A stretch of DNA of 64,000 nucleotides, from NCBI GenBank assembly GCA_044235425.1, contig JBIIHW010000009.1, forward strand, positions 1 through 64,000, in the 5' to 3' direction. Under the pieces are notes generated by a model, which saw only the letters and a list, made by a program, of their open reading frames with translations, was not told where the DNA came from and did no database searches. Made by a program: the position numbers and the translations under genes. The stretch is from Pirellulaceae bacterium. Lineage in GTDB: Bacteria > Planctomycetota > Planctomycetia > Pirellulales > Pirellulaceae. Shown here one piece after another: positions 9,836 through 47,824 of the stretch (position 1 is its first letter; every line of letters begins with the position of its first letter).

Positions 9836-9990
9836 TGCTGTGATTTAAGCGGTTCAGCCGACGAATACAACCACGAGCTTCATTGGGAGGCAGCGGACTT
9901 TGTATCGCGGGCCATCCCGAGGATGGCGGCCGCCCTGTTTTTTGAATTTCCATGGGGCGGAGCTTCCTCGATCGTGCAGCTTTGTCGGTG

Positions 9991-26600: not shown

Positions 26601-28725
26601 GCGAGGGATTGGCAAGGTTGACCGACCAGATGCTCGTCGCACCAAAGGTAGTCGTCACGTTCTGTTGCACGTTGAAAGAGGTCGCGGAAAGCTTGCCGTT
26701 GATCGTGATCGCGCCGGATTGGTTCAGGTCCAACGCACCGACCGTCATCAGGGCATTAGCTGCTAAACTGAATGTGGTGCCACTCGTCGTAAACGAATTC
26801 GCGTTCGAACTGGTGGTACCTAGGGCGATGGCGCCCGTAACGTCAATCGAAACGTTTCCGGTCCCCGCTCGCACTCCTAGCGCACTGAAGGAGCTCCCTG
26901 TTGCAGAGATCTCTTGATTGGCCGTCTGAACATAAGAACTCACATCCACTGAGCCACCTGCCAGGGTGACCGTGCCAGTGCCACTGGTCCGCAAAAAGCC
27001 ACCGATGGTAATGGCGCTAGGGGCGGTAATGGAAATATTGTTGTTCTGCCCATCCACACTTCCTGTGATCGACAAGCTGGTGGCGGAATTCACAACGAAT
27101 CCGCCCGTAAACAAGCCGCTGTTAATGGTAATGCCACCCTGCGTGGAGCTGAGGGTGACCGTGCCACGGTTGGAAGCACCACCCGAGGCGATCGTACCAT
27201 GACCGGCGGGACTGGTGATCGAAGCGCCGGTCACCGCCACAGTTCCCCCGTCATTTTCGATGCGACGATAGGTAACGGTACCAGCACTGGTCAGACTGAT
27301 GTCACCTTTGGCTGGCGACGCATTAGTGGCTTTTACGGTCGCGAGGGTCAACGCGGCGGTGGAGTTCACCGTTACCGTGCCCTTCATCGCCGTCAGGTTC
27401 CCGGAAACGATGGAAATCGAATTGGCATCCAAGGAGATCGCACCAGCCGTAATCGTGGTCGCCACCGAGATACTACCACCCGCTCCAGCCCCACCCGTGA
27501 GCGTCACCGCTCCCCCGACCGATCCGGTCCAGGTGGTGATCCCCCCCGTAGAAATCTGAATCTGCGGCGCATTGATCGTAACCGCAGCCCCTGTGGTCAC
27601 GATATTCGGCAAGGTCACGGAACCAGCCGACGACGTGATTCCCATGGTACCGGTGTTCGCAGCTTGCCAACCCGTCGAAGAGCTGACATTACCAACGGCG
27701 CTCACGGTCAAATTGCCCACATAGGTACGAATACCAGCGGAGCTTAGTGTATGGGTTGTGGCGCTGAACGTACCTGCGGCGGCGTAAGAAGCTAGATTGA
27801 TGCTGTTGGCTGACGAGGTCGTGGGCGTCGTCAGGGTGATGGCGCCAAAGGGAGCCGTCAAACTTGACGATACAGCTCGGAGCGACGCCGATGTCGACGT
27901 CGTATTGATCCGCGAGCCCTCGATGGCGATATTACCACCATCTGTCAGTCCGCTGGCAATCGTCACCAAACCGCTCGCCAAGATCGACAAATTCCCTACG
28001 TTACTGCTGGGCCGCGACGCACTCACCGCACCCGCGGTGACGGCGCCAGCGGAGCGAATCGTGATGTCGCCGGCGGTTGAAGTCAGGTTCGCCAGCGTGA
28101 CACTAGAAGCTCCCTGGGACGCATTACCGATGTTCACAGAGCCAGCCGTAAGCGGCCCAGTGGAACTAATCGTGCCGGTCTGATCCAGCGTCAAAACACC
28201 GGTACCGTTGAGCGTGAATGAATTGGTCGCACCGCGGCTAAAACTGACACCTGTCGCGGTAAAATTACCGCCGTTGACCGCCAGAGCTGTGCTAGCCGTG
28301 ACCGTTTCCGCGGTGATCTGAATGCTCCGCCCTTGAGTGATGCCGCTGAATGTGAAACCAGTCGTGCCCGAAGGCCCGAGCGTCACGGAATCAGTACCTC
28401 CCTGGCCGTTCACAATCAAACCTGTCAGCGAAGCTACCGTGGCCGACTGCACACCGGGAGCGGTTGAGAGGTCAATTGCACTTTCAACACCACCACCGAG
28501 CGGCAAGTTGTGGGCCAGATTTCCGCCTGACCCGAGCGAGATCACAAGCGAATCGTTATTGCTATCGCCAATAAACTCGGCGACTCCACTAGTCAGACTC
28601 ACCCCCCAGGCCATTAAGTCTCTTTTCTCGAGGCCTTCGAAACGCAACTTGCCCTGCAACTTACTCCGCGACAGACGTTGCTTCCGAGCCGCAATCCGAC
28701 CACGATCCTGGGAAAACCGAAACAT
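23662..28725 (-). CDS. giant Thr/Ser/Gly-rich beta-helix-like surface protein (adhesin/autotransporter-associated beta-strand-repeat-like), paralog A
   Basis: 1687 aa with an extreme T/S/G/A/N composition. Repeated 'GxxTLxxxGxxTxTGxxTV'-like strands are present. The N-terminal motif is KLRFEGLEKRDLMA. A conserved central module is present (SCAGACTLML ... DSLTIDYANGDPL ... YDGLGGTGTDTLFLVDSNGATNGTYSFDTF). Confidence 0.7.
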   Translation of the reverse strand: MFRFSQDRGRIAARKQRLSRSKLQGKLRFEGLEKRDLMAWGVSLTSGVAEFIGDSNNDSLVISLGSGGNLAHNLPLGGGVESAIDLSTAPGVQSATVASLTGLIVNGQGGTDSVTLGPSGTTGFTFSGITQGRSIQITAETVTASTALAVNGGNFTATGVSFSRGATNSFTLNGTGVLTLDQTGTISSTGPLTAGSVNIGNASQGASSVTLANLTSTAGDITIRSAGAVTAGAVSASRPSSNVGNLSILASGLVTIASGLTDGGNIAIEGSRINTTSTSASLRAVSSSLTAPFGAITLTTPTTSSANSINLASYAAAGTFSATTHTLSSAGIRTYVGNLTVSAVGNVSSSTGWQAANTGTMGITSSAGSVTLPNIVTTGAAVTINAPQIQISTGGITTWTGSVGGAVTLTGGAGAGGSISVATTITAGAISLDANSISIVSGNLTAMKGTVTVNSTAALTLATVKATNASPAKGDISLTSAGTVTYRRIENDGGTVAVTGASITSPAGHGTIASGGASNRGTVTLSSTQGGITINSGLFTGGFVVNSATSLSITGSVDGQNNNISITAPSAITIGGFLRTSGTGTVTLAGGSVDVSSYVQTANQEISATGSSFSALGVRAGTGNVSIDVTGAIALGTTSSNANSFTTSGTTFSLAANALMTVGALDLNQSGAITINGKLSATSFNVQQNVTTTFGATSIWSVNLANPSPAMTTNGPTVFANGSTIDVNAVTADVENNQVFQLVKGPLNSITNNGYQLTVSSVDAQGESIVLLASLTNQTSNQFLDLAAYVYQPMIFSCAGACTLMLDTNSTPFGPNILLKDGNGDVINTGADLVPLGLVTSISISGLADSTDSLTIDYANGDPLFNSIAETPVAIPASYDGLGGTGTDTLFLVDSNGATNGTYSFDTFVVNATNSSSGTINLGVVGTSGVETTGPNSSTVSFAGLEPITTTMPIVSATLNLTSGDDAVTVANSSATQTTVSGATIETVNFTRPSGSITVNGGIGNDTITIGDYNSQGLQTDGANLTINSESISQQAKITTTGGDYTTTGSGTYSSNLAVNSLDTTGGTGTGAVSIGQTGDVSVGGGQAKSFAVTGANAFTLQGALSTTAGDISITSSGSATINDLSASNGGAAIITISSGGQSLNQMGSWSTDGGQISTSGVGFSGSAGTINTSSAPLLMNHTGNVNTGTLTAGSVTITTTGTFTGTGAITTTQGAVEITSTGSATLGQVTAANAGGPAAITVDAGNLTDGFSNISVTSTLSSTGGNISLTGAAISSQTGATINATNGTTVSSSGTLTIDASSTVNLAAAVQGGAVTITAGSTITTQGSGTMIEADYGNVSLTSDGNISLQGDVFTSTSALSTHTLSINAVNGELAPSAHIYTNGGNISLTGGSYRTNSAGKWIRGTTNTADISSTTATSTVGSLTMNFGTTILINGPVGARTGSLTAGTTFTTQAPTTVSTTMGGSATMGFTGGGFTLNAGGNVAIGDLVWANIRGTQSSSSINAGSNTVTLKSGAAITGNIMRTYGGGLSITSGALNVNGFLVLVDSSNRQGQLTLNNSSTAAFAASVRASRYVVSGGGDVTFSGNALLQVVFVASSPTSNAGRFVQTGAGNLTLSGSSRLNLLAYGTTQNAGPFDVLTTEGTYTYSSANAPNLGTFPGQAAPSAAKYTLTNDTANKRFRVTTVV

Positions 28726-28966: not shown

Positions 28967-31900
28967 CTACGGGGCTACACGCACAATAACCCGTTTATTC
29001 GCTGTCTGCACGGAGATGGTGGTCACTTTGGCCGTGAGTCCAGTTTTCGTCGGTGTTGCACCAGCATACGTAAAGGTACCCGTGGTGGTGAGAATTGGAT
29101 AGTCGGTCGTCGTGTTCGACACGATTGAACCGGTGGCGATCCCGTTGATGACAAAGCCACCATTGGAAGCTGGCACCGTAAGATTACCGCCTCCAGTTTG
29201 CGTGAACACAACCTGAGGATTATTCACGTTAACTTGCATCGTCATCTTCGCCGCCGCCGTGCCTGCAAAGGTCATGTTGCCGCCACCCGTTACCGTATAC
29301 GAACGAGCGTTGAGGGATTGATTGATCGTGATCAAACCGGAATGATTCATCGTCAGACTTCCCATACGACTGACGCCTTCAAACAGATTCACCGGCCCAT
29401 TCGTGGTGAGCGTTCCACCGTTCAGGGTTAGATTACCACCAAACGTTCGCACGGCATTCGTGGTCGCCACTGTCTGCCGGAGCCGAATGGCGGCAGTGCC
29501 CGCCGAAAATGTACTGCTGGCTTGGCTTAAGAGGCGAGTATTCATCGTAACGGAGTCGAAGAGGGAAATGCCGCCCGGTGCGTTAATCACAATACCGCCC
29601 ATGTAGGCCACCAGGGTGTCGCCTGCCCCCACCGTTGTGAATGTGGTACCGGCAGTCAAATTCATCGAACCAGCAATCGTCGTCCCATTCAAGCTGATCG
29701 TCGTATCAAAGTTCATCGTCAACGTGCCTGTGGCTCCCGTCGTCGCACTGGCCGTTGCCGCTCGCACAGATTTCGAATTCAAATTCAAGAACGACCCGCC
29801 ACTCAATGTCACCCCCCCACCGTTTGATAAGATACTGCCGCGAGCCTCAAGAATACCTGTTCCAGAGTTGGCAGAAATCGTAGCCGAGCCAGATCCCGTC
29901 GCGGCCGCAATGGCCACATCGCCTCCCAGTGTCATGTTGCCAGCACTGGTTAAACCAATACTACCAACCAAAGCGGTGACGGCACCGCTCGTCGACAAGG
30001 TCGTGGCTGAATTGATCGTCACCGTCCCACCCAGCACTGCACCGGTGAAAGCCGTGGAGCCCGTCGTGGAGGTCACGGACAACGTATTTCCCGTGCCCGA
30101 AGCGGTACCGGTCGAGACCCCTGCCAAAGCCAACTGGCCGCCGGTGATGCTGATGGCCCCAACGGTACCCGTGGAAGCCGTGTTGATCGTACTGGTCGCT
30201 GTTACCGTCCCAGAAGCGTTGATCGTAACGGAACCCTCTCCCGTCGTCCCAGTCGCACTGACCGTCGTCAAATTCACCGTCCCCAGCGCGGTGATGGACA
30301 CCGCACCCGCACTGGCCGCCAAACCTGCCGTGGCGGTGACGTCGGTAGCGGAGTCCAGGGTAATCGAGCTACCGCCGACCGCTGCGGTGCGAATCGCTCC
30401 GGCTGTGGTCGTTATCGAAACCGGTCCAAAGCCCAGCACACTGTTGCCGGCATTCACCGCCACCAGAGTCGCTTGACTACCCGAAATCGTGACGGCACCT
30501 GCATTGGTCGTGATCGCCCCCGTAGCGGTCACTGCTCCAGTGGCTGCGAGGTTGACCGTACCCGGACCAATTGCTCCGGTGGCCGACACACCGGTCACGG
30601 AGAGGGAGCCAGCGGAGATAAAACCTATGTTTCCCGCACCGGCCGTCAAGACCCCGGTGGAAAGGTCGAAGGCCGATTGTATATCGATCGACGAACCCGT
30701 GACCGCTCCTAAGGTTCCCGCTTGAGTAGTCGTTGTAGTCGTGATGCTGACCGGTCCCAGGTTGGGAGACAAACCAGCAGCAATGCTGGTGGAAGTCGAT
30801 GCCAAGCTAATACGATCGGCGTTCAGGGTGATGCCACCGCCGTCCGTCGACATCGCCCCATTGATCGTTAAGGTACCAACTGCGGAAATCGCAATGGTTC
30901 CATTGCTACTCGGCCCCGACACGGCCGCTCCGGCAACTGTGATCGCTTGCGTGCCCGTCAGTTCCAGCGTACCACCGTTCAGATTGATGACGCCGGTCGA
31001 AATTGATCCGGAGGCACTCGACAGAGATAGCGTTGCTGCTGTCACGTTACCCGTCGACGCATTGCCGTCCGACGAAATATTAACTGCACCGCGCGTGGCA
31101 CCGCTGCCGGCGGTTACAGGCCCGAGGGACAACGTCCCGCTGTTGGCCGAAATCGTGATCGTCCCCCCATCGGTCGCCAAAGATTTCGAACCCGCGCCCG
31201 TGATCGAACCACCCGCACTGCTGACCGCAATCGTTCCACTTGGAGCACTCACTGCATTCAGCGAGATATTTCCCCCGGCGGTCACCGTGGCATTACCTTC
31301 AGCGGTGCTGAAGTCGAAAACACTGAGTGTGGTCGCAGCGGTCAGTGACACATCTCCCTTGGCCGTGCCACCCAACATGTTGATGGTACCTTGATTGATC
31401 GTTACCGTGCCGGCTCCCGTTCCCCCTAGCGTGTTGAAGTTCGTCGAATTGCCGATACCGCTGTAGGTTCCCGAGCCACTGTAGTTGAGGCTACCACCCA
31501 ATGTCACCACGGTATTATTTTGAGTGATATTCTCAGAATCAATTGTGACACTGGCACCGTTCGTCTGGTAATCGGTCGTAGTAATGGAGTAGGTGAGCGA
31601 GTCGGTACCGTCACCGCCGTAAATGTTCATCTGTACGCTCGGCTTCGGCGTCGACAACGTGGTGATGGTGCTGCCGTTGAAGCGAATGTTGGTCGCGCTC
31701 AGCTGCGTTAGCGTCACGGCGTCGTTCCCGCTGGTGAAGGTCACCGTTTCAGTGGCGATGGGCAGAGCCGTTGTGACCGCTTTCAGATTCAAATAACCGA
31801 TCTCACCCGGGCTGACCGCGGAAGCCCCTTCCTTCGCACCCGCGGCGATGATCCCCGAATTGGCATCAATCGACGTTGAGGAGAACGTGTCAAACTCATA

Positions 31901-33928
31901 GCTGCCATTCGTCGCCCCGTTTGCATCTACGAAGGTCAGCGTGTCCGTACCAGTTCCCACCCCCCCGTCATACACCGCCGGAAACTTCACACCCTGGTAG
32001 CTCAGTGGATCCCCATTGCTGTAATCCACCGTTAACGTATCGGTGGAATTTGCATTGCCGTTGATCTCGAGGTAGTCGACCAAGCCCACCGGAGTGTTCG
32101 TCGGAATAATGTTCACTCTGGAGCTATTCAGCACCATCAGCGTGGGACCGAAATGCGTCGAATCGGTTCCCAGAACCAACGTACATGATCCACCGCAGTT
32201 GACGACCAGGTTTTCTCGTACGTAGCCGAAAATCTTCAGGCCTTGACCGCCACCCGCCAGAGTCTCTACCTCGGGAATAAAAATCGTATACTCGTCTTCA
32301 TTGTCGATCGGCAAGATCGCCGTCAGGTTCATCCCGTTGTCGATGACTGATCCCGTGGTCTCGACAATCCGATAAATCGAGACATTTTCCACGTTGATCG
32401 CCCTGGGATCAAGATTCACCAGCGCCCCAGAAGCAAACTCCACATTGCCAACCGCACTCAACGCGGGCGTCGCCGTCGCCAAGTTCACATTCCAAACACT
32501 CGTGCTTCCGAAGACAATCTGGCCTGCGCCCGTGCTCGTAATTTTGTTCGTCGTCACTTCGCCGTTAAACGTTGAGGTGCCGCTGTGATCCAGCTTCAGT
32601 TCCGTCATAGGGACCGAAAACTTGCTGCCCGTCGTCTGCGTAAATGTAGTGCCCGATGACGTCAGCGTACCACCGACCCGCACGCTACCAATCGTGACGG
32701 CACCAGTGGCCGTGATCGTCAGATCGTTGCTATCGACTTGCGTTGTGCCGAGCGTCACGCTACTGCCGGATACCGTCACGTTCGCATTATTCGCCACCAA
32801 AAGGCTGGTGGAAACTCCCCCGCCGGCACTCAACGACACCGACGTCGCATCGGGCGCATCGACTCGCCCACCCAGAGCAATTGCTCCATCCGACGACAGG
32901 GACAGGCTACTACCGCGAATGAGGAAGGGCGAGGTGCTTGAAATACCCGCATTGGTGCCAACACTAAAGGAACTTGCATCAATGGGCGAACTGAGCGTTA
33001 CCGTGCCGGTCGCGGCGGGATTAAGCTGCACCGGACCACTGAGGGGCAGGGACCGGTTCGTTAAAATACCGGCAGCACCTGTCGTCGGCCTGCCAACGAT
33101 ATTGTTGCCCGAAATCGTGACCGAGCCACCGTCCGTGAGCACTGCTCCATAGGAAACATCACCGGTCGCCGAGACGGTCACATTGCCAACGGAGGAGCCA
33201 GTCGCAGCCGCAGAAACTCGGGCCGGCAAGTCCAAGTTTCCCGTGGCGGAAATCGAGATATCCCCCGTCAGCGAAGTCCACTCACCCGTACCCGTCACGC
33301 TGCCGCCGGTGAGCGAGATCGATCCGGAACTCACGTTGCCACTCCCCAGTGCGATGCCCGTCGTGGGGTAATTCAGCGACAGAGTTCCGCTATTGGTGGT
33401 CCAAGTCAAGCTGCCGGTCTTGACCAAGCTATTGCCGGACGCCGTGAACGTACCGCCAGAGACATTGATCGCGGTGGAGGTCAGCGTGAGGGTCTCGCTG
33501 GTAATACTGGCGCTGCGACCGCTGGTGATTTGCGTGAACCCAAAGTTGGTGCTCGATCCACTGAACGTGACCGCATCAGTGCCGTCACCGCCGTCAATCG
33601 TTAGCCCCGTGATGACACTCACGGCCCGCGCCTGCACACCCGCCGTGGTGGGGTCGAGGTCAGTGGCGCTTGCCAAGCCGCTAGTGGCCAGAGGAATATT
33701 ATGAGTGAGTACGCCTCCGGAACCCAGCGTGAGCACCAGCGAATCGTTATTCGAATCGCCCTGAAAGGTAACATCATTACCTGTGAGGGAGACATTGAAG
33801 GCCATGAGCGAGCGATCTTCCAGCCCTTCAAACCGTAGCCCGCCACGTCGCGCCCGTGCGTTTAAAGAACGACTCTTGCGAACCAGATTACGACGCCACG
33901 ATTTTTTCAGCCGACTTAACATACTCAC
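28967..33928 (-). CDS. giant Thr/Ser/Gly-rich beta-helix-like surface protein, paralog B
   Basis: 1653 aa. The N-terminal motif is RRGGLRFEGLEDRSLMA, followed by a region aligning to paralog A (DSNNDSLVLTLGSGGVLTHNIPL). The central module is conserved (CGGSCTLVLGTDSTHFGP ... DTLTVDYSNGDPL ... YDGGVGTGTDTLTFVDANGATNGSYEFDTF). Confidence 0.7.
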   Translation of the reverse strand: MSMLSRLKKSWRRNLVRKSRSLNARARRGGLRFEGLEDRSLMAFNVSLTGNDVTFQGDSNNDSLVLTLGSGGVLTHNIPLATSGLASATDLDPTTAGVQARAVSVITGLTIDGGDGTDAVTFSGSSTNFGFTQITSGRSASITSETLTLTSTAINVSGGTFTASGNSLVKTGSLTWTTNSGTLSLNYPTTGIALGSGNVSSGSISLTGGSVTGTGEWTSLTGDISISATGNLDLPARVSAAATGSSVGNVTVSATGDVSYGAVLTDGGSVTISGNNIVGRPTTGAAGILTNRSLPLSGPVQLNPAATGTVTLSSPIDASSFSVGTNAGISSTSPFLIRGSSLSLSSDGAIALGGRVDAPDATSVSLSAGGGVSTSLLVANNANVTVSGSSVTLGTTQVDSNDLTITATGAVTIGSVRVGGTLTSSGTTFTQTTGSKFSVPMTELKLDHSGTSTFNGEVTTNKITSTGAGQIVFGSTSVWNVNLATATPALSAVGNVEFASGALVNLDPRAINVENVSIYRIVETTGSVIDNGMNLTAILPIDNEDEYTIFIPEVETLAGGGQGLKIFGYVRENLVVNCGGSCTLVLGTDSTHFGPTLMVLNSSRVNIIPTNTPVGLVDYLEINGNANSTDTLTVDYSNGDPLSYQGVKFPAVYDGGVGTGTDTLTFVDANGATNGSYEFDTFSSTSIDANSGIIAAGAKEGASAVSPGEIGYLNLKAVTTALPIATETVTFTSGNDAVTLTQLSATNIRFNGSTITTLSTPKPSVQMNIYGGDGTDSLTYSITTTDYQTNGASVTIDSENITQNNTVVTLGGSLNYSGSGTYSGIGNSTNFNTLGGTGAGTVTINQGTINMLGGTAKGDVSLTAATTLSVFDFSTAEGNATVTAGGNISLNAVSAPSGTIAVSSAGGSITGAGSKSLATDGGTITISANSGTLSLGPVTAGSGATRGAVNISSDGNASTGNVTAATLSLSSASGSISTGVINLNGGTLELTGTQAITVAGAAVSGPSSNGTIAISAVGTLTINGAMSTDGGGITLNADRISLASTSTSIAAGLSPNLGPVSITTTTTTQAGTLGAVTGSSIDIQSAFDLSTGVLTAGAGNIGFISAGSLSVTGVSATGAIGPGTVNLAATGAVTATGAITTNAGAVTISGSQATLVAVNAGNSVLGFGPVSITTTAGAIRTAAVGGSSITLDSATDVTATAGLAASAGAVSITALGTVNLTTVSATGTTGEGSVTINASGTVTATSTINTASTGTVGAISITGGQLALAGVSTGTASGTGNTLSVTSTTGSTAFTGAVLGGTVTINSATTLSTSGAVTALVGSIGLTSAGNMTLGGDVAIAAATGSGSATISANSGTGILEARGSILSNGGGVTLSGGSFLNLNSKSVRAATASATTGATGTLTMNFDTTISLNGTTIAGSMNLTAGTTFTTVGAGDTLVAYMGGIVINAPGGISLFDSVTMNTRLLSQASSTFSAGTAAIRLRQTVATTNAVRTFGGNLTLNGGTLTTNGPVNLFEGVSRMGSLTMNHSGLITINQSLNARSYTVTGGGNMTFAGTAAAKMTMQVNVNNPQVVFTQTGGGNLTVPASNGGFVINGIATGSIVSNTTTDYPILTTTGTFTYAGATPTKTGLTAKVTTISVQTANKRVIVRVAP

Positions 33929-34259: not shown

Positions 34260-35294
34260 TTATCGTGCGTTTCCGCCACGAAAGATGCGAAACTTGGTGG
34301 AAAAGAGAAGCTTTACTAGCCACTTCAGGGGACGCACGCGATCCTGCAGTGGGCCACCAACTCCGCTCAGCGCGTCGACGCAGCCGTTGAGTACGGCGTC
34401 CGCCCCTGCTAATCGGCCGGCACTTCGCTCATGCGCGTACATCCAGTAAACGTGCTGCCAATATTGCAGGCGTATTCGCCAGCGTCCGGCGCCCAAGACC
34501 GCCGCTCCGGCATGGGTGCGCACGAGCAATCCCAGGTTTCGCGCATCAAAATAGCGCTGCAGCGGCCGCGAATCGCGCGCAAAGGCACTCGAACCCTTGT
34601 GCCATACGAGCGGCTCGCTGACGATCCCGCAGCGCCACCCCGCGCGACGAGCCCGCAAACAAAATTCGGATTCCTCATGAATCAAAAAGAATCGTTCATC
34701 GATAAGTCCGACTTGGGCGAAGGTCGCGCTGCGGACCCACATCGCGCACCCATTCACCAGTTCGGTTTCCGCCACATGCGGAGGCTCGGTCGTCTGCCAC
34801 GGCACGGCGCGCCGCTGAAAAAATCCGCCGCCCACCGGATCGTTGAAAACCCAGCCGTCGGTGTTCACCTGCTGCGGTTCATCCATCCAGCAGATCACCG
34901 GCCCCAATATCCCGTGCTCGGGATGAGCCGCGGCGGCTGCCCGCATCCGCTCGAGCAGATTCTCGGCCACGATCGTGTCGTTATTCAGCAGTAAGATCGC
35001 CTCCGCTCCATCGTCCACAGCGCGGCGAATTCCTACGTTGTTTCCGCCCGACCAGCCCCTATTCTCCTCGCAGCGAATGATTTCGATCCAATCGTGCGCC
35101 GCTTGAATCTGTGCTACCGGTGACGGCTGAGTGCCATTTTCGACGAGGTAGACGCGCCAGTGGGGATCCCGCACGCGGCGCAGCGAATCCAGGCACTTCA
35201 GCGTGTCATCCAGCCCGCGGTAGCTGAGCACCACCACCGCCACGAGTCCCACCGCCGCTTCCGCGCTCGCTTCCACCCCGCTTGCTGCCCCCAT
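34260..35294 (-). CDS. family 2 glycosyltransferase
   Basis: GT-A fold motifs (VAVVVLSYRG..DTLKCLDSL, YLVENG, LLLNNDT, DxD-like). It is on the same strand as, and upstream of, the two giant genes. The start was set at the internal ATG (35294), preceded by GGAAG. The ORF could extend to 35435. Confidence 0.65.
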   Translation of the reverse strand: MGAASGVEASAEAAVGLVAVVVLSYRGLDDTLKCLDSLRRVRDPHWRVYLVENGTQPSPVAQIQAAHDWIEIIRCEENRGWSGGNNVGIRRAVDDGAEAILLLNNDTIVAENLLERMRAAAAAHPEHGILGPVICWMDEPQQVNTDGWVFNDPVGGGFFQRRAVPWQTTEPPHVAETELVNGCAMWVRSATFAQVGLIDERFFLIHEESEFCLRARRAGWRCGIVSEPLVWHKGSSAFARDSRPLQRYFDARNLGLLVRTHAGAAVLGAGRWRIRLQYWQHVYWMYAHERSAGRLAGADAVLNGCVDALSGVGGPLQDRVRPLKWLVKLLFSTKFRIFRGGNAR

Positions 35295-35519
35295 CCGCTT
35301 CCCCTCATTCCTGGTTCCTGCACCACGCGCCAGTCTGCCGCTCCAGCCACGCCTTCGAGAGACTAACTTGCCGCGCGCAGCCGAGCAATAAGCCAACTCG
35401 CCGAAAAACCTCCGGAATCTCCTGGTGGGAACCACTGCACCGGATTGACCCTAATCGCCAATCGTTCCACAATGCCAACTTTCACCCCAGGTCCGACTGC
35501 GGAGCGTCAAAGGAGCATC

Positions 35520-36977
35520 ATGGTCGAGTTTTCCGGAAAGATCTTGTTCGTCGGCTATGGAGCGGTCGCTCATTGCACCTTGCCGATCCTCCTCCAACAT
35601 GTTCGCGTCCCGCTGACCCAGATTTCGATCCTGGATTTTGAAGATCGAGCCGAGGACTTGCGGCCCTGGAGCGAGCAGGGTGTGAACTGGATTCGAGAGC
35701 GTGTCGAGCGGAGTAATTTACGTTCGCTGCTGGCCAAACATCTGAGCGCCGGCGACCTGCTCATCGACCTGGCTTGGAATATCGATTGCTGCGAAATCCT
35801 GCAGTGGTGCCACGATCACCAGGTCATGTATCTCAACACGTCCGTTGAGGTTTGGGACCCGTATGCCGGTGGCGACAACCAGCACCCGACCGAACGAACG
35901 CTCTACTGGCGGCACATGAACGTGCGGCGGATGATCGGCCGCTGGGAGCAGCCCGGGGCCACCGCTGTCCTGGAACATGGCGCCAACCCCGGACTCATTT
36001 CCCACTTCACTAAACAAGCTCTGCTCGATATCGCCGCCAAACTGGAAGAGGATGGCGAGCTGCAAGGCGCCTACGGAGAGCGGGTGCGACAGCACGTGCG
36101 TGACCAAGCCTTCAACCACCTCGCTCATCAGCTTGGTGTCAAAGTCATTCACTGCAGCGAGCGTGACACGCAAATCTCGAATGTCCCCAAAGAGGTCGAC
36201 GAGTTTGTCAACACGTGGAGCATCGAAGGGTTTCGAGAAGAGGGTACGACGACCGCGGAAATGGGCTGGGGAACTCACGAAAAAGAACTCCCACCGCTCG
36301 CCTTCGAACATGGCGATGGTCCGCGAAATCAGATCTGCCTGGCCAAAATGGGCATGAATACCTGGGTCCGCTCCTGGGTTCCCCATTACTGCATCCGCGG
36401 CATGGTGGTCCGCCACGGAGAAGCGTTCACCATCTCCGATGCACTCACCGTTTGGGAACAGGGCCAGCCGGTCTATCGTCCCACCGTGCACTATGCCTAC
36501 TGTCCCTGTGACGCCGCTCTCGTGTCGCTCAATGAACTGCGCGGCTACGATTACCAGCTGCAGCCGCGGCTGCGCATCATGTCGGATGAAATCACCAGCG
36601 GTGCCGACATCCTGGGAGCACTCGTCATGGGCCACGCCTACCAAAGCTGGTGGACGGGTAGCATCCTGAGCATCGAAGAGTCACGGCGGCTGGTACCCCA
36701 TCAGAATGCCACGACGATGCAAGTTGCCATCTCCGTCGTCGCCGCCGTCACTTGGATGATCGCCAACCCTACCCGCGGCGTCCTGGTTCCCGACCAGCTG
36801 CCGCACGAACATGTGCTGCGGATTTCCAAGCCCTACCTCGGAGAATTTGTCTCCGTGCCGTCCGCCTGGACGCCGCTCAAGCATGTCGCTCACTATTTTG
36901 GCGAGCACGGTCGACCAGACCTTGATCTGGCTGACCCCTGGCAGTTTAAGAACTTCGTCGTGGGCGAACGTGACTGA
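35520..36977 (+). CDS. hss: homospermidine synthase (NAD-dependent)
   Basis: Strong similarity to bacterial HSS blocks: N-terminal Rossmann ILFVGYGAVAHCTLP, then ERDTQ, FVNTWS.EGF, VYRPT.HYAY.PCD, LSIEE.RR, P.QNAT, PYLG and DPWQF. An AGGAG RBS lies 5 nt upstream of ATG 35520. The ORF-track start at 35445 is a TTG. Confidence 0.8.
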   Translation: MVEFSGKILFVGYGAVAHCTLPILLQHVRVPLTQISILDFEDRAEDLRPWSEQGVNWIRERVERSNLRSLLAKHLSAGDLLIDLAWNIDCCEILQWCHDHQVMYLNTSVEVWDPYAGGDNQHPTERTLYWRHMNVRRMIGRWEQPGATAVLEHGANPGLISHFTKQALLDIAAKLEEDGELQGAYGERVRQHVRDQAFNHLAHQLGVKVIHCSERDTQISNVPKEVDEFVNTWSIEGFREEGTTTAEMGWGTHEKELPPLAFEHGDGPRNQICLAKMGMNTWVRSWVPHYCIRGMVVRHGEAFTISDALTVWEQGQPVYRPTVHYAYCPCDAALVSLNELRGYDYQLQPRLRIMSDEITSGADILGALVMGHAYQSWWTGSILSIEESRRLVPHQNATTMQVAISVVAAVTWMIANPTRGVLVPDQLPHEHVLRISKPYLGEFVSVPSAWTPLKHVAHYFGEHGRPDLDLADPWQFKNFVVGERD

Positions 36978-37022
36978 TCGTTCCCTGTTCCGCTGTCCGT
37001 CTTACATCGGGAGAGTTCCTGA

Positions 37023-38165
37023 ATGATCACACCGCGAAAGTTGCAAAAGCTGGCGCGCGAACATGGCACTCCGTTATTCGTGATTGACCATGATGTAATT
37101 CGTAAAAACTACGCCACTTTTCGGCAGCATCTGCCGCGCGTGCAAGCCTACTACGCCGTGAAAGCCAACTCGGATCCCCTCATCGTCAAGACGCTGTTCG
37201 AGGAGGGAGCGAGCTTTGACGTGGCCAGCATGCCCGAATTCATGCTCGTCCACGACAACATCAAAAAGTTCTCTGCCAAAAAACGGCAGGAATTCATCTG
37301 GGACAAAGTCATCTACGCCAATCCCATCAAGCCCCCCAAGACCCTCGAGGAGCTGAACCAGTATCGACCGTTGGTCACGTACGATAATTTTGAAGAGGTG
37401 AAGAAGATCAAGCGGTATGCCCCCCAGGCGGGCGTGGTGCTGCGTGTCAAAGTGCCCAACACCGGCTCCGTCGTCGAACTCTCCTCCAAGTTTGGGGCCT
37501 CGTCGGGTGACGCCCTGCGCCTGATCGAAGCCGCCTTCGACGCCGGACTCACTGTCGAAGGACTCAGCTTCCACGTCGGAAGCCAGTGTGCCAATCCAAC
37601 CAACTACGTGCAGGCCCTGCAGTTGATGTCGAGCATCTTTCAGGAGGCGTGGCAGCGGGGCTACCCCCAGGTCAAAATACTCGACATCGGCGGCGGCTTT
37701 CCTGTCCCCTACGACGACCAGGTCCCCCCCTTCAAAACCCTCGCCAAAGTGCTCAACTCCGAATTCGACCGCCTGTTTCCCAAAGAAATGGAAATTGTGG
37801 CCGAGCCTGGTCGGTTCCTGGTCGCCACGGCAGCCCACCTGGTTACTGGCATCGTGGGCAAAGCGGTGCGCGACGGGAAACTCTGCTACTACATCGACGA
37901 TGGCGTCTACCATACGTTCTCCGGCGTGATCTTCGACCACATCCAGTATCACCTGCGCTCCTTCCGAGATGGCCCCAAACAGGTCTGCTCGGTGTTTGGC
38001 CCCACCTGCGACGCCCTCGACACCGTATCGTTGGCGGAACATCTGCCTGAGGATCTCGAGATCGGCGAACTGCTCTACAGCCAGAACGTCGGCGCCTACA
38101 CCCACGCCTCGTCGACCTATTTCAACGGTTTCCCACCGGCCAAAGTGATCCACGTGAATCGCTAG
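37023..38165 (+). CDS. ornithine (Orn/Lys/Arg-family) decarboxylase, PLP-dependent alanine-racemase-fold type
   Basis: PLP-lysine motif YAVKAN with FDVAS, the FHVGSQC motif and a C-terminal GAYT motif, all typical of eukaryotic-type ODC. It lies 45 nt downstream of hss. Confidence 0.75.
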   Translation: MITPRKLQKLAREHGTPLFVIDHDVIRKNYATFRQHLPRVQAYYAVKANSDPLIVKTLFEEGASFDVASMPEFMLVHDNIKKFSAKKRQEFIWDKVIYANPIKPPKTLEELNQYRPLVTYDNFEEVKKIKRYAPQAGVVLRVKVPNTGSVVELSSKFGASSGDALRLIEAAFDAGLTVEGLSFHVGSQCANPTNYVQALQLMSSIFQEAWQRGYPQVKILDIGGGFPVPYDDQVPPFKTLAKVLNSEFDRLFPKEMEIVAEPGRFLVATAAHLVTGIVGKAVRDGKLCYYIDDGVYHTFSGVIFDHIQYHLRSFRDGPKQVCSVFGPTCDALDTVSLAEHLPEDLEIGELLYSQNVGAYTHASSTYFNGFPPAKVIHVNR

Positions 38166-38419
38166 CGTGGTGATGAAAATCAAGCCGCCAGGGGCTGATG
38201 AGCCCCCCTGCCGGGGACGAGATAAAAAAGCCAGCCCCGTCCGCAGTTAAGCAGCTGAGCTGCCGACCGAATCTCGGGTAGTCGTGCGCGCCCACCAGTC
38301 GCTATACTCCCCCGCCAACTTGGATCGCGCTGGCTCACAAACACGGAAGTGAAACAACTCGCCAGCGCCCGAACGACTGCTAATTCCGGTTCACCTCCAT
38401 CGGACAGGGACGTCCGATC

Positions 38420-42832
<4,413 letters not shown>

Positions 42833-42843
42833 CGAAAGCGCCC

Positions 42844-43698
42844 ATGAATCTCGCCCACATGACCGCCGACCGCTGGTGGCAGCAGTTGCTACAGGTCCAG
42901 CAGCAAGCGCACGCCAGCGGGGCCCTGGTGCCGCTCACCACTCGCAGCGAATCGCTGTGGGACGGCACGCTCCGGTTTGCAGTTCGAGTGCTCCTGACCC
43001 CGCCGACGAAATCCGCGGCGCCAGCAGCGAATCCTTTTCTTCCCTACGAACGCGCGCTCTACGTCAGTGATCTGGGCGATCAGCACGTTTGTTTACTCAA
43101 CAAATACTGTGTCACCGATCATCACTTGCTAGTTGTCACCAAGGACTATCGCGCGCAGGAGGAACCGCTGCAGGCGGTCGATTTTGCGGCCATGGATTTG
43201 TGTCTCGCGGCGGCCCAGCAGATCGGATGGCAGGCACTGGCGTTCTTCAATGGTGGTCGCGTGGCCGGAGCGAGTCAGCCACACAAACATCTACAGCTGA
43301 TCTTGGGCTCACCCGGCCAGTCCCCGTTACCACTGTGGGACTGGCTGACGGCGGATCCGGCGGTTTGGGATCGGGGCTGTTTCCAGGCGCTGCCGTTTGA
43401 GCATCAACTGGTACGCTGCGGTGTTCGCTCGGCGGAAGCCGTCTATGCATCGCTGCGCTCCCAGCAACACGATGGGCCGTACAATTTGTTGTGGACGCGC
43501 GACTGGCTGCTGCATGTGCCACGACGAGCGGAATGTTTTGGCACGATCTCACTCAACGCGCTGGCCTTCGCCGGTGGCCTTCTGGTGCGGGGTGAATCCC
43601 AGTGGCAGGCGTTGCAAACGGCCGGCCCACTCGCGGCCCTCCAAGCCACCACGTTCTCTCACCCAACAAGCGGAGACAGGCGGGAGCCGTCGGCGTGA
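42844..43698 (+). CDS. ATP adenylyltransferase / Ap4A phosphorylase (Apa1/Apa2 family, HIT-like)
   Basis: The LLNKYCVTDHHLLVVTKDYRAQEEPL ... FFNGGRVAGASQPHKHLQLI region matches the yeast Apa1/2 LLNKFPV..HxLLVT ... YNCGP.SGASQDHKHLQ signature (H-x-H-x-Q). Confidence 0.6.
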   Translation: MNLAHMTADRWWQQLLQVQQQAHASGALVPLTTRSESLWDGTLRFAVRVLLTPPTKSAAPAANPFLPYERALYVSDLGDQHVCLLNKYCVTDHHLLVVTKDYRAQEEPLQAVDFAAMDLCLAAAQQIGWQALAFFNGGRVAGASQPHKHLQLILGSPGQSPLPLWDWLTADPAVWDRGCFQALPFEHQLVRCGVRSAEAVYASLRSQQHDGPYNLLWTRDWLLHVPRRAECFGTISLNALAFAGGLLVRGESQWQALQTAGPLAALQATTFSHPTSGDRREPSA

Positions 43699-43821: not shown

Positions 43822-44718
43822 ATGCATGACTTCCAATACGCAGCGCCTACGACGCTTGAGGCTGCCGTCTCGCTTCTCGCCCAGCAATCCACCAGCGCTC
43901 GGCCACTGGCTGGCGGCACCGATCTGATCGATCAGATGCGAGTGGGGCGGACGGCCCCTCAGCTGGTCATCGACATCAAGAAAATTGCCGAGCTGAATGT
44001 GCTCAGCTGCGACTCACAGGGTCTGCGTGTGGGAGCGGCAGTGCCCTGCTACCGCATCAGCGAACATGCTGCCGTTCGGCGCGACTACGCCGCTCTGGCC
44101 GATAGCTGTGCGATCATTGGCGGCGTGCAGATTCAAAGTCGCGCGACGGTGGGCGGTAATCTCTGCACCTCCGGCCCAGCAGGTGATACCACACCCAGCG
44201 TCATCGCACTGGGTGGCATCTGTGTCATTGCCGGCCCAAGTGGAACTCGGGAAGTTCCCGCGGAATCGTTCTGCACGGCTCCTGGGAAGAATGTGCTGCA
44301 GCCGGGCGAACTGCTGGTGGAACTGCGTTTTCCCGCTCCGACGCCCCACAGCGGCTCACACTATCGTCGGCTGATTCCCCGCAACGAAATGGATATCGCC
44401 GTCGTGGGCGTTGGCGTCCACGTGACGCTCGACAAACAGCAGCAAACGTTCTCGTCGGTGCGTTTGTCCCTGGGAGCCGTCGCGCCCACGCCCCTACTGG
44501 TGACCTCCATCGGCCAGGCCTTGGCCGGGCAGGCGGTTACGGACGCAGCCTTCGCGCAGGCCGGTGAACTTGCACGCGCAGCAGCGTCACCCATCACCGA
44601 CATGCGCGGCACCAAAGAGTATCGCTGGCATGTCACCGGAGTGCTGGTGGAACGAGCTCTGCGGGCAGCGGTCGATCGCGCTCGCGGTCTGACCATCGAC
44701 TATCGCCCCGGCCATTAA
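43822..44718 (+). CDS. molybdenum hydroxylase FAD-binding medium subunit (CoxM/XdhB-like)
   Basis: FAD-binding PCMH domain (AGGTDLIDQMR; ATVGGNL) and a CO-dehydrogenase flavoprotein C-terminal domain. Confidence 0.75.
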   Translation: MHDFQYAAPTTLEAAVSLLAQQSTSARPLAGGTDLIDQMRVGRTAPQLVIDIKKIAELNVLSCDSQGLRVGAAVPCYRISEHAAVRRDYAALADSCAIIGGVQIQSRATVGGNLCTSGPAGDTTPSVIALGGICVIAGPSGTREVPAESFCTAPGKNVLQPGELLVELRFPAPTPHSGSHYRRLIPRNEMDIAVVGVGVHVTLDKQQQTFSSVRLSLGAVAPTPLLVTSIGQALAGQAVTDAAFAQAGELARAAASPITDMRGTKEYRWHVTGVLVERALRAAVDRARGLTIDYRPGH

Positions 44719-44888
44719 CCCGTTGTCCGCTCGAGCGTTCGCCCTGGCGAGTGCTTCGCGCACCAGAACAGTTCGCCATATTTTAACCCCTGAAGACGCT
44801 TCCGCCACCTGCGAGGGTGGCAGTGAACAAGACTTTCGCTGAGCCCAATCCCTTTCGCCTTCTTCACCTCGGACGGTGCCTTTTCACT

Positions 44889-45386
44889 ATGTCACAAAAA
44901 CACGTTGTATCCGCGAACATCAATGGCGACCGAGTGGAGTTTCTTTGCGAGCCGCGTCAGACGCTACTCGAAGTGCTCCGCAATACGCTCGATTTGACCG
45001 GCACCAAAGAAGGCTGTTCCAACGGCAACTGCGGCGCCTGCACGGTACTCATGAATGGTCGGCCGGTGGTGAGCTGCTTGGTGCTAGCCATGGAGGCGGA
45101 GGGGAGCGAGATTCGCACGATTGAAGGGGTCGCCTGCGGCTCTCACCTCAACGAAATCCAGCAAGCATTTCTGGAAGGTGCGGCACTGCAGTGCGGAATC
45201 TGCACGCCCGGCATCATCATGCAATCCGAAGCCCTGCTGGCCAAGAATCCCCAGCCGACGGAAGACGAGATTCGTTTCCACTTGGCAGGCAACCTCTGCC
45301 GCTGCACGGGCTATGACAAGATCGTCCGCGCCGTCCAAGCGGCCGCTCAAAAACGTCAAGCTAACCTTGCTGCCAGCCCGTCCTAA
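44889..45386 (+). CDS. molybdenum hydroxylase (2Fe-2S)-binding small subunit (CoxS-like)
   Basis: Plant-type ferredoxin cluster CSNGNCGACTV and a second cluster QCGICTPG ... CRCTGY. The start was set at the internal ATG at 44889. Confidence 0.8.
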   Translation: MSQKHVVSANINGDRVEFLCEPRQTLLEVLRNTLDLTGTKEGCSNGNCGACTVLMNGRPVVSCLVLAMEAEGSEIRTIEGVACGSHLNEIQQAFLEGAALQCGICTPGIIMQSEALLAKNPQPTEDEIRFHLAGNLCRCTGYDKIVRAVQAAAQKRQANLAASPS

Positions 45387-45451
45387 AGGTGCGGCAGTCC
45401 GCCTGGCACAACGGTGGCAGCCATCGTGGCCCCCTGGTACGGACCATCACG

Positions 45452-45497
45452 CACTCCCAAAAAACGCACTCCCAAAAAACGCACTCCAACAACTCAC
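45452..45497 (+). repeat. 15-bp direct repeat (cgcactcccaaaaaa) x~2.7 upstream of the Mo-subunit gene
   Basis: Read directly from the sequence. It lies in the leader immediately upstream of the coxL-like ATG at 45545. Confidence 0.7.
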
Positions 45498-45544
45498 AGA
45501 TTAATCCCGCATTCCTCCCTCTGAACCGAACAGGTATCACTCCC

Positions 45545-47824
45545 ATGTCACTCGCCGATAAGCCCAAATACAAAGTGATTGGCACTCGCCCTATTCGCCA
45601 TGATGGCGTGGACAAAGTGACGGGGCGTGCGAAGTATGGAGCAGACATCAAGCTGAATGGGCTGCTCTACGCCGCCATGCTGCGCAGTCCTCACGCCCAC
45701 GCCCGGATCAAACGCATCGATACCTCGAAGGCGGAAAACATGCCGGGCGTACGGGCGATAGCGACGAGTGCCGATTTGCCCGAGCAGGGTGATCGGATTG
45801 TGGAACTAGGCGAAGGCGCGGTGAACATGCGGCACTTGAGCTGCAATGTTCTGGCGCGCGACAAAGTGCTCTATCGTGGTCATGCGATCGCCGCCGTCGC
45901 CGCCGACTCGATTCACCAAGCCGAAGAAGCGGTCAAGCAGATTGAAGTGGAGTATGAGTTATTGCCACCCGTGCTGCAGGTGCTCGACGCCATGCGTAGC
46001 GATGCGCCGATCCTGAACGACGACGTGCGCACCGAGACGCTCGGCGGCATCGGTGACTATTCCACTGGCCCCACAAACATCGCCAAACGGATCATCATCG
46101 AAAAGGGAAATCTGGAGCAGGGCTTTGCGGCTTGCGATGTGATTGTCGAGCGGACGTTTGATACGGCGATGGTCCATCAAGGCTACATTGAACCGCATAA
46201 TGCGACGGTGTTATGGAGTCCGGATGGCAAGATTACGGTCTGGATGAGCACGCAGGGTTCATTCACCGCTCGGCAACAGACGGCCGAGTTACTGCGGGTA
46301 CCGATTTCCGCGGTGAAGGTCGTGCCGATGGAAATTGGTGGTGGCTTTGGTGGAAAGATTTCAGTCTATCTGCCGCCGGTGGCGGCCGTGTTGTCGAAAA
46401 AGACGGGCCGCCCCGTGAAACTGGTCATGTCGCGCACGGATGTGCTCGAAGCGACCGGTCCCACCCCGGGCTCGCACATGAAAATCAAGCTCGGGGCGAC
46501 GCGTGATGGCCGGCTCATGGCGGGCGACGCCTGGGTGGCGTTTGAGGCTGGAGCGTTTCCGGGTTCGCCGATTGGTGCGGCCGTCATTTGCGTCTTTGCT
46601 TGCTACGATATTCCGCATGGACGAGTCGAGGGTTATGACGTCTGCGTGAATCGACCGCGCACCAACGCTTATCGCGCGCCAGGTTCCACGCAGGTCGCGT
46701 TCGCCGTGGAGACGGTGATCCAGGAGCTGTGCGGGAAGCTGGGAATTGACCCTGCCGAATTTCGGCTCAAAAACGCCGCTCGCGAAGGCACTCGCCGTGT
46801 CGACGGCCCGGTATTCCAGCGTGTGGGGCTGGTGGAAACGGTGCAGGCGATACGGGACAGCGAACATTACCGCTCGCCGCTGGGTGGCAAGCATCGCGGA
46901 CGTGGCATCGCGTCCGGTTTCTGGATGAACTGTGGTCTGAAGTCGGCGGTTACGGCCACGGTGAACCCCGACGGTACGGTGTCGCTGGTCGAAGGTTCGA
47001 CCGACATTGGCGGCAGTCGTACCGGTATCGCGATGCAGTTGGCCGAGACACTGGGAATTCGCGCCGAAGATGTCACTCCGACGATTGGCGATACCGACAG
47101 CGTGGGCTACACCGACGTGACGGGAGGTAGTCGAGTGACGTTTGCGACGGGCATCGCCGCCTACGAAGCGGCTCAGGACATTAAACGGCAACTCATTCAG
47201 CGTGCGGCATTGCTCTGGAGCGTACCGGCCAGCGAGGTGAGTTATCGCGACGGTGGCGTCACCGGCCCCGGCGATCAGCGACTTAGCTTTGCCGAAATCG
47301 CCGCCAAGATCGCCCACACGGGAGGCGCGGTGATTGGCAGCGGCACCTCCAGTGAAGCTCAGCAGGGTGGCGCGTTCGGCACGCACTGCGTGGATGTCGA
47401 GGTTGATCCGGACACCGGCAAAGTGCAGATTCTCCGCTACACCGCCGCTCAAGACGTCGGCACCGCAATTCACCCCAGCTACGTCGAAGGTCAGATTCAA
47501 GGGGGAGCGGTTCAAGGGATCGGCTGGGCGCTCAGTGAAGAGTACTGGTATGACGCACAAGGCACGATGCGAAACTCCACGTTACTCGATTACCGCACTC
47601 CCACCTGCTACGACGTGCCGATGATTGACACGATTCTGGTTGAAGTCCCCGATCCGGCTCATCCCTATGGGGTGCGCGGAGTAGGCGAGGTGCCGATTTG
47701 CCCGCCACCCGCGGCGATCGCCAACGCGATTGCTCAAGCCGTCGGCGTCCAGATGACGCAGTTGCCGATGTCGCCACCCCATCTGCTCGCCGCAATCCTC
47801 AAGTCTCGCGCCGCGAAGTCTTAA
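45545..47824 (+). CDS. molybdenum hydroxylase large molybdopterin-binding subunit (xanthine dehydrogenase/aldehyde oxidase/CoxL family)
   Basis: Aldehyde oxidase/xanthine dehydrogenase a/b hammerhead and MoCo-binding domains (GRAKYGAD, HAHARI, GGGFGGK, active-site E near C-terminus region GVGE). The start was set at ATG 45545. Confidence 0.8.
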   Translation: MSLADKPKYKVIGTRPIRHDGVDKVTGRAKYGADIKLNGLLYAAMLRSPHAHARIKRIDTSKAENMPGVRAIATSADLPEQGDRIVELGEGAVNMRHLSCNVLARDKVLYRGHAIAAVAADSIHQAEEAVKQIEVEYELLPPVLQVLDAMRSDAPILNDDVRTETLGGIGDYSTGPTNIAKRIIIEKGNLEQGFAACDVIVERTFDTAMVHQGYIEPHNATVLWSPDGKITVWMSTQGSFTARQQTAELLRVPISAVKVVPMEIGGGFGGKISVYLPPVAAVLSKKTGRPVKLVMSRTDVLEATGPTPGSHMKIKLGATRDGRLMAGDAWVAFEAGAFPGSPIGAAVICVFACYDIPHGRVEGYDVCVNRPRTNAYRAPGSTQVAFAVETVIQELCGKLGIDPAEFRLKNAAREGTRRVDGPVFQRVGLVETVQAIRDSEHYRSPLGGKHRGRGIASGFWMNCGLKSAVTATVNPDGTVSLVEGSTDIGGSRTGIAMQLAETLGIRAEDVTPTIGDTDSVGYTDVTGGSRVTFATGIAAYEAAQDIKRQLIQRAALLWSVPASEVSYRDGGVTGPGDQRLSFAEIAAKIAHTGGAVIGSGTSSEAQQGGAFGTHCVDVEVDPDTGKVQILRYTAAQDVGTAIHPSYVEGQIQGGAVQGIGWALSEEYWYDAQGTMRNSTLLDYRTPTCYDVPMIDTILVEVPDPAHPYGVRGVGEVPICPPPAAIANAIAQAVGVQMTQLPMSPPHLLAAILKSRAAKS

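Follow-up and report, generated by a model that had tools for sequence, protein, structure and literature searches.

Two adjacent genes in the window (the whole 64-kb stretch of DNA that was analysed) most probably form a two-gene operon for homospermidine biosynthesis from ornithine via putrescine, a reading to which we give a probability of around 80%. The first gene, hss (35520-36977, + strand), codes for a 485 aa protein assigned to the NAD+-dependent bacterial homospermidine synthases (HSS) by Pfam, PDB matches and catalytic residues. The second, odc (37023-38165, + strand), codes for a 380 aa homolog of the PLP-dependent ornithine, or possibly ornithine/lysine, decarboxylases of alanine-racemase (AR) fold, as assigned by Pfam, PDB matches and active-site positions. 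In the proposed route, the PLP-dependent AR-fold enzyme encoded by odc would convert L-ornithine into putrescine, and possibly also L-lysine into cadaverine, as in its nearest solved relatives. The NAD+-dependent HSS would then oxidize one putrescine, pass the 4-aminobutyl moiety on to another and reduce the imine, yielding sym-homospermidine and ammonia. The same two steps were put forward in the original prediction, and they agree with the literature reading of clusters in which hss adjoins an AR-fold odc in diverse bacteria, namely that homospermidine is made from ornithine with putrescine as the intermediate (Li et al., J Biol Chem 2026; PMC13625781). We observed directly that both proteins belong to these families and keep the catalytic residues, and that the gene pair is conserved in different phyla. 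That the two genes are transcribed together, that the physiological substrate is ornithine and that the organism makes homospermidine is inferred.

Judged from its sequence, the first gene is a bacterial homospermidine synthase, the identity that had been predicted for it. Its product carries the Pfam domains PF03435 Sacchrp_dh_NADP (residues 8-150, E 5e-30) and PF16653 Sacchrp_dh_C (residues 154-444, E 7e-24), both above the cut-offs and far beyond chance. A total of 14 PDB sequences were matched over query residues 5-481, all of them HSS (E 6e-98 to 1e-87), including the structures from Blastochloris viridis (E about 1e-97), Legionella and P. aeruginosa, and no match other than HSS appeared in the PDB even at E up to 10. 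Identity amounts to 42% with B. viridis HSS and to 50% with a Legionella HSS homolog, values that fall inside the 38-77% spread found among annotated HSS proteins, and near relatives of the protein carry the name homospermidine synthase at NCBI and JGI. Length, two-domain architecture and end-to-end alignment are shared with the known enzymes (EC 2.5.1.44) of B. viridis (4PLP/4TVB), L. pneumophila (2PH5) and P. aeruginosa (6Y87).

The residues N162, E210, W229, E237, H296, E298, Y323 and D361 have been described as the substrate-binding and catalytic set of B. viridis HSS (Krossa et al. 2016). The window protein has the same residue at each of these positions (N156, E214, W233, E241, H299, E301, Y325 and D363, respectively), and among 120 clade homologs seven of them are invariant, with the N162 equivalent kept in 119. 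Identity with the known HSS extends to E117, E232 and Y325, and also to the N-terminal GxGxxA/G NAD-binding motif, which reads GYGAVA in the window protein, GFGSIG in the aligned B. viridis HSS and GFGGVA in the aligned Legionella homolog. The acidic residues D94, E117 and E237 of the B. viridis enzyme form an "ionic slide" that guides putrescine into the pocket. Here, E117 and E237 are kept and D94 is replaced by Asn across the clade and by Tyr in the Legionella homolog, so that D94 is not universal in the HSS family. Compared with B. viridis HSS, the outer positions of the slide are altered in the window protein (V93W, D94N, V115S), and there are around 10 extra residues at 176-195, which are common to the Legionella type.

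The open reading frame of hss extends from a first TTG (35445-36977, with the TGA stop codon at 36975-36977). With the ATG at 35520 as start, the product has 485 aa, which is also the length of the homologs aligned at 100% coverage, one database protein among them being 100% identical. An AGGAG Shine-Dalgarno core (35511-35515, + strand), read from the sequence, lies 4 nt 5' of this ATG; it had been described as strong and unusual for the window, and in a rough test a core of at least 5 nt before any candidate start was found in only 6 of the 35 large open reading frames, hss included, which fits that description. The spacer between both genes (36978-37022, + strand) is 45 nt long, as predicted, and contains GGGAGAG at 37009-37015, ahead of the ATG start codon of odc at 37023. 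A scan for terminators found no + strand terminator-like site between or after hss and odc and, as the spacer has none, the two genes are probably co-transcribed. Upstream of hss, a GT2 glycosyltransferase gene assigned by Pfam (34260-35435, - strand) is divergently oriented, with a 1653-aa protein without Pfam match beyond it, which bears out the arrangement first described with respect to a GT2/giant-protein locus. On its other side, the pair is flanked by a gene for a 1470-aa protein, also without Pfam match. The divergent intergenic region holds a weak sigma-70-like promoter candidate (35445-35473, + strand; TTGACC, 17 nt, CACAAT), the sole match between 35000 and 38700, where 0.9 matches are expected by chance; only its position is suggestive. 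An Rfam scan of 35000-38700 gave a single sub-threshold chance match, and no riboswitch or leader RNA.

By family models and structure matches, the second gene groups with ODC and dual lysine/ornithine decarboxylases (L/ODC), not with NspC, LysA or SpeA. Its product has the PF02784 Orn_Arg_deC_N barrel (E 3e-51) and the PF00278 Orn_DAP_Arg_deC beta-sheet domain (E 6e-17), both common to V. vulnificus L/ODC (2PLJ), S. ruminantium L/ODC (5GJM) and human ODC. These three gave the best PDB matches, with 258, 242 and 195 bits, respectively, and identities of around 38% to both solved L/ODC enzymes and 36% to human ODC. Lower scores were obtained with PBCV arginine decarboxylase (172 bits), diaminopimelate decarboxylases (at most 111), FslC-type enzymes (54) and SpeA (24), and the protein stays far below every cut-off of the NCBIfam models LysA, SpeA, NspC and FslC. 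On these family-model and PDB scores, diaminopimelate decarboxylase and N-citrylornithine decarboxylase were rejected as identities for the gene.

The active site was checked on the alignment with human ODC, whose numbering is used here. The window protein and all 68 clade homologs compared keep the ODC residue at each of the 19 positions checked, including the PLP lysine K69, D88, E94, R154, H197, S200, G235-237, E274, R277, D332, the catalytic C360, D361, Y389, F397 and N398. The YAVKAN, FHVGSQC and GAYT motifs on which the gene had been called a eukaryotic-type (AR-fold) ODC are all present in the translation, and the call stands, the closest enzymes being the Vibrio and Selenomonas L/ODC and then eukaryotic ODC. 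A conserved insertion of around 10 residues (NIKxLPAKxRQDWIWDK, window residues ~78-95) is specific to the clade and absent from the V. vulnificus, S. ruminantium and human enzymes.

The hss-odc pair is a conserved two-gene unit. Of the 73 related loci that extend far enough beyond hss, 70 have a same-strand odc after it, at 300 nt or less in 69 of them and mostly with gaps of 5-100 nt. Represented among these related loci are at least seven phyla (Planctomycetota, Verrucomicrobiota, Myxococcota, Acidobacteriota, Gemmatimonadota, Elusimicrobiota and Nitrospirota), the proteins of this cross-phylum clade being about 70% identical. The pairwise identities of the HSS and ODC proteins co-vary (r = 0.78), and no further gene is conserved beside the pair among 80 related loci.

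Ornithine specificity of the second enzyme is likely, given that no agmatinase, agmatine deiminase or SpeY-like/deoxyhypusine-synthase-like gene is encoded in the 64-kb window, where SpeA and SpeE/SpeD were also looked for and not found. One other possibility, rather improbable in our view, is that odc encodes a dual lysine/ornithine decarboxylase, in which case the pair would produce not just homospermidine but several polyamines together (putrescine, cadaverine, homospermidine and aminobutylcadaverine). The two top solved matches are precisely such dual enzymes, from V. vulnificus and S. ruminantium, and the specificity-helix stretch has the same length as theirs, one residue shorter than that of human ODC. 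HSS is also said to be able to form N1-aminobutylcadaverine. Nevertheless, the L/ODC enzymes share only around 38% identity with the window protein, and cadaverine is reported as absent in every planctomycete row of the excerpt of Table 8 of a polyamine compilation. A dual specificity would refine rather than contradict the main explanation.

Less probable still, and in our opinion clearly unlikely, is that the odc product is a neofunctionalised arginine decarboxylase, whose agmatine would be converted into putrescine by enzymes encoded outside the window. The hss-odc pair would not then be self-sufficient, as agmatinase, or agmatine deiminase plus N-carbamoylputrescine amidohydrolase, would be needed. 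Such a change of function is documented in HSS-linked and SpeY-linked AR-fold ODC homologs of alpha-Proteobacteria and in PBCV-1. Some HSS-linked ODC homologs next to an agmatinase gene have been shown to be arginine decarboxylases, and the HSS-linked AR-fold homolog of Rhodophila globiformis acts on arginine only (PMC13625781). However, in the documented HSS cases the agmatinase gene adjoins odc, whereas the window and the great majority of the 80 related loci lack it. An intact two-gene unit in seven phyla with variable flanks is also easier to explain if it is self-sufficient. The position equivalent to D332, which in the PBCV-1 arginine decarboxylase is reportedly Glu, is Asp in the window protein, as in ODC and L/ODC, and the PBCV enzyme scores below both of these groups.

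On the side of arginine, the sequence at hand covers 64 kb of the genome, and genes for the conversion of agmatine into putrescine could sit elsewhere. Furthermore, five Verrucomicrobia loci have an agmatine deiminase homolog at 0.1 to about 2.5 kb from the hss-odc pair, and their ODC proteins are 67-70% identical to that of the window, with a near-identical specificity-helix sequence. Some of the Verrucomicrobia members of the clade have hss-odc next to both a deoxyhypusine-synthase-family gene and an agmatine deiminase homolog. Such neighbours are a hint that genes of agmatine metabolism accompany close relatives of the window ODC.

A pair formed by carboxy(nor)spermidine dehydrogenase (CASDH) and carboxy(nor)spermidine decarboxylase, which would lead to spermidine or norspermidine, shares with hss-odc the saccharopine-dehydrogenase-like and AR-fold decarboxylase superfamilies, but it is refuted at the sequence level and extremely improbable, since gene 1 matches HSS structures and no CASDH structure and has all the HSS-specific catalytic residues, while gene 2 reaches 22 bits against a cut-off of 409 with the NspC model and finds no carboxynorspermidine decarboxylase structure among its PDB matches. 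Grouping with CASDH and NspC was the outcome that the original prediction had named as contrary to it, and by the PDB search and the NspC model neither gene groups there.

Regarding published systems, the clusters of Li et al. (2026; PMC13625781) resemble the locus preferred here as an ornithine-to-homospermidine operon in having a same-strand hss adjoining an AR-fold odc, and no speB lies beside odc in the window. Their tested examples are alpha-Proteobacteria (B. abortus, R. globiformis, M. gryphiswaldense), whereas the window clade spans Planctomycetota, Verrucomicrobiota and five further phyla. In a search of plasmid records for HSS together with ODC, a cluster was found in the alpha-proteobacterium Methylobacterium bullatum only, and no odc lies beside the HSS genes on the Sinorhizobium, Legionella, Methylorubrum, Leisingera, Alteromonas, Microvirga and Pseudomonas replicons. 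The M. bullatum order is odc, a 181-aa open reading frame whose product was taken, on its sequence alone, for a GNAT-like acetyltransferase, and hss, in contrast to the hss-then-odc order of the window, and its ODC is only around 31% identical to that of the window. The pathway of the chlorovirus PBCV-1 (ADC, AIH, NCPAH, HSS) has, like the window, an ODC-fold decarboxylase at its start and a bacterial-type HSS at its end, but its decarboxylase is arginine-specific and two more enzymes are needed to reach putrescine, genes for which are lacking in the window. No Glu occurs at the D332 position in any of the 80 ODC-homolog loci from a viral-contig scan, and a viral 372/407-aa ODC homolog considered as a PBCV-1-type arginine decarboxylase was rejected, as it matched eukaryotic ODC.

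The predicted product fits what is reported of the group, as had been anticipated: in the same excerpt of Table 8 of the polyamine compilation, most tested planctomycetes are listed as containing homospermidine. In planctomycetes this polyamine may also arise via the unrelated SpeY route, for example in Gimesia maris. This route and the arginine-specific HSS-linked ODC homologs are caveats that the original prediction did not contain.

The two enzymes, their pathway and this arrangement of genes have all been described before, and the research value of the locus is confined to the substrate specificity of a widespread decarboxylase clade. It is quite improbable that the decarboxylase of the cross-phylum clade has been neofunctionalised for arginine, or accepts a broad range of substrates, instead of being an ornithine decarboxylase. 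If so, the two-gene module would need genes for agmatine processing from other parts of the genome, that of the Verrucomicrobia relatives would be wired with the adjoining SpeY-like and agmatine deiminase genes, and the published "mutually exclusive" split between putrescine/HSS and agmatine/SpeY would be blurred. For the planctomycete-like organism, the annotation of the locus provides the most probable way in which it makes its characteristic polyamine, and for the family it adds hss-odc as a two-gene unit tightly conserved, at about 70% protein identity, in at least seven bacterial phyla.

The two genes of the locus are real ORFs on the same strand, and their coordinates and spacing could be read directly in the sequence. 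In its longest form, gene 1 (hss) begins with the TTG at 35445 and stops at a TGA (36975-36977, +), and the ATG at 35520 yields a protein of 485 aa, the length common to more than 100 full-coverage homologs; in the database comparison, one full-coverage homolog was 100% identical to the window protein. Gene 2 (odc) runs from an ATG at 37023, 45 nt past the stop of gene 1, to 38165 (+), and encodes 380 aa. The sequences AGGAG (35511-35515, +) and GGGAGAG (37009-37015, +) precede the respective starts. The original prediction held that the strong Shine-Dalgarno (SD) sequence of hss is unusual in the window, and this stands, because in a rough test only 6 of 35 large ORFs had an SD core of at least 5 nt ahead of their candidate starts. 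Neither a known RNA element nor a + strand terminator was found in or between hss and odc, and the single promoter-like site 47 nt 5' of hss is no more than expected by chance. A gene assigned by family match to family-2 glycosyltransferases (34260-35435, -) lies 5' of gene 1 on the opposite strand.

To gene 1, Pfam assigned the saccharopine-dehydrogenase NAD(P)-binding and C-terminal domains. When the protein was compared with all solved structures, 14 distinct sequences were matched over residues 5-481 (E 6e-98 to 1e-87), all of them homospermidine synthases (HSS) of Blastochloris viridis, Legionella pneumophila or Pseudomonas aeruginosa, and no other solved structure matched even with E-values up to 10. 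The substrate-binding and catalytic residues N162, E210, W229, E237, H296, E298, Y323 and D361 (Krossa et al. 2016) are all identical in the window HSS (N156, E214, W233, E241, H299, E301, Y325 and D363 in the HMMER alignment); seven of them are invariant across 120 homologs, and the equivalent of N162 is kept in 119. The window HSS carries Asn in place of D94, an outer "ionic slide" residue that the Legionella-type enzyme does not share either. Identities of 42% to the B. viridis HSS, 50% to a Legionella homolog and 39% to the HSS homolog of Sinorhizobium meliloti, whose hss gene has been the subject of a genetic study, fall inside the range found among annotated HSS proteins. Since domains, structure matches, residues and identity range all fit, gene 1 belongs to the HSS family on each sequence criterion testable here.

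Gene 2 has both Pfam domains of the alanine-racemase-fold basic amino acid decarboxylases. Its top solved matches were two dual lysine/ornithine decarboxylases, from Vibrio vulnificus (258 bits) and from Selenomonas ruminantium (242 bits), followed by human, mouse and trypanosome ornithine decarboxylases (ODC, around 185-195 bits), as compared with 172 bits for the arginine decarboxylase of PBCV-1 and at most 111 bits for diaminopimelate decarboxylases. Scores were far under the cut-offs of the NCBIfam LysA, SpeA, NspC, FslC and DokD models, which argues against an NspC-type enzyme. With residues numbered by alignment to human ODC (K69 within YAVKCN), the window protein and 68 clade homologs are identical at K69, D88, E94, R154, H197, S200, G235-237, E274, R277, D332, C360, D361, Y389, F397 and N398, and these active-site positions, together with the ranking of solved matches, group gene 2 with the ODC and lysine/ornithine decarboxylases. 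The clade ODC homologs differ from the three solved relatives in carrying a conserved insertion of around 10 residues (NIKxLPAKxRQDWIWDK).

Conservation of the pair was analyzed in 80 related loci, one genome per species, with HSS at 67-77% identity, from Planctomycetota, Verrucomicrobiota, Myxococcota/delta-Proteobacteria, Acidobacteriota, Gemmatimonadota, Elusimicrobiota and Nitrospirota. Of these loci, 73 have room downstream; 70 of the 73 carry an ODC homolog, at 61-78% identity, 3' of hss in the same orientation, and the gap is 300 nt or less in 69 of the 70. No further gene is conserved beside the pair. HSS and ODC pairwise identities co-vary (r = 0.78), and the same two loci, one from a Pirellulaceae MAG and one from a Planctomycetia MAG, are the nearest neighbours of both window proteins. 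Arginine/ornithine biosynthesis genes were seen near the pair in some loci (L numbers designate loci from other genomes or contigs, with local coordinates): argJ in seven of Opitutaceae type (L016, L024, L030, L054, L057, L059 and L069; in L057 at 8618-9934, -), and an amino-acid-kinase plus GNAT gene resembling N-acetylglutamate synthase or kinase in five of Opitutus/Opitutae or Bryobacter type (L016, L038, L057, L072 and L078). Clade members also occur on two contigs that IMG/VR lists as viral: a complete pair at around 69% identity (L090, IMGVR_UViG_3300010376_001890, 4427-7122) and, on a 144-kb contig, an ODC homolog that is 56% identical and has the clade-specific insertion (L089, IMGVR_UViG_3300037089_000505, 6001-7137). 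Either the contigs are bacterial DNA that was misclassified, or the copies are carried by viruses.

The window looks planctomycete by gene content, with DUF1501, DUF1559 with an N-terminal methylation motif, and giant proteins. Downstream of the divergent glycosyltransferase gene, two giant ORFs without Pfam match lie in tandem (23662-28725, -, 1687 aa; 28967-33928, -, 1653 aa, rich in Thr/Ser/Gly/Ala repeats), and their products may be secreted or surface proteins. Directly 3' of odc lies a 1470-aa ORF without Pfam match (38420-42832, +), whose product has a signal-like stretch with ANPANL-type repeats at the N-terminus and a SNNGSA repeat at the C-terminus. The end of this ORF shares 22 nt with the beginning of an Ap4A phosphorylase gene (42811-43698). 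Further on are a three-gene molybdenum hydroxylase set of the xanthine/CO dehydrogenase family (43822-47824, +; FAD-binding, 2Fe-2S and molybdopterin-binding large subunits) and a 1948-aa protein (52623-58469, -) with RTX calcium-binding nonapeptide repeats (21 matched stretches, HemolysinCabind E 7e-100).

An hss gene adjoining an alanine-racemase-fold ODC gene has been described in diverse bacteria and read as a route from ornithine through putrescine to homospermidine (Li et al., J Biol Chem 2026, PMC13625781). The family matches, the conserved pair and these published clusters support the same two-step route in the window, as originally predicted, with a probability of around 0.8. A different arrangement, odc (388 aa), a 181-aa ORF and hss (481 aa), was seen on a replicon of the alpha-proteobacterium Methylobacterium bullatum (L088, NZ_LR743510.1, 3010-6808), in a region that carries no annotation in the PLSDB record; judged from its sequence, the 181-aa ORF may encode a GNAT-like acetyltransferase. 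The one real rival is that the window ODC is an arginine-specific decarboxylase. In Rhodophila globiformis, where odc has an agmatinase gene next to it, the "ODC" strictly decarboxylates arginine, whereas the enzyme of Brucella abortus is strict for ornithine (Li et al. 2026, PMC13625781); the same change of specificity is known in Pelagibacterales and PBCV-1. In line with this possibility, an agmatine deiminase homolog is located 0.1 to around 2.5 kb from the pair in five Verrucomicrobia loci of this clade (all -: L013, 8690-10003; L015, 3364-4599; L020, 2310-3470; L022, 2332-3546; L045, 3374-4567), several Verrucomicrobiia genomes have a SpeY-like gene of the deoxyhypusine synthase family directly 5' of hss on the same strand (L013, 4725-5897, +, Pfam DS, E 2e-66; L060, 4886-5956, +; weaker matches in L020, 4922-5884, and L022, 4877-5884), and the specificity helix of the ODC homologs in the five loci is near-identical in sequence to that of the window ODC. 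No N-carbamoylputrescine amidohydrolase was seen beside these genes. By contrast, homologs of agmatinase, agmatine deiminase, N-carbamoylputrescine amidohydrolase, SpeA and SpeY are all absent from the 64-kb window, the great majority of the 80 loci lack such genes beside the pair, and self-sufficiency is the simplest explanation for a two-gene unit that seven phyla have kept intact. Arginine specificity appears unlikely.

Ornithine specificity of the window ODC is a well-supported prediction. Homospermidine has been reported in most planctomycetes examined, although this polyamine pattern alone is no proof of the hss-odc pathway, because at least Gimesia maris seems to rely on the unrelated SpeY route. 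Polyamine operons of this kind are ordinary and have been described before; the one here belongs to an uncharacterised clade.
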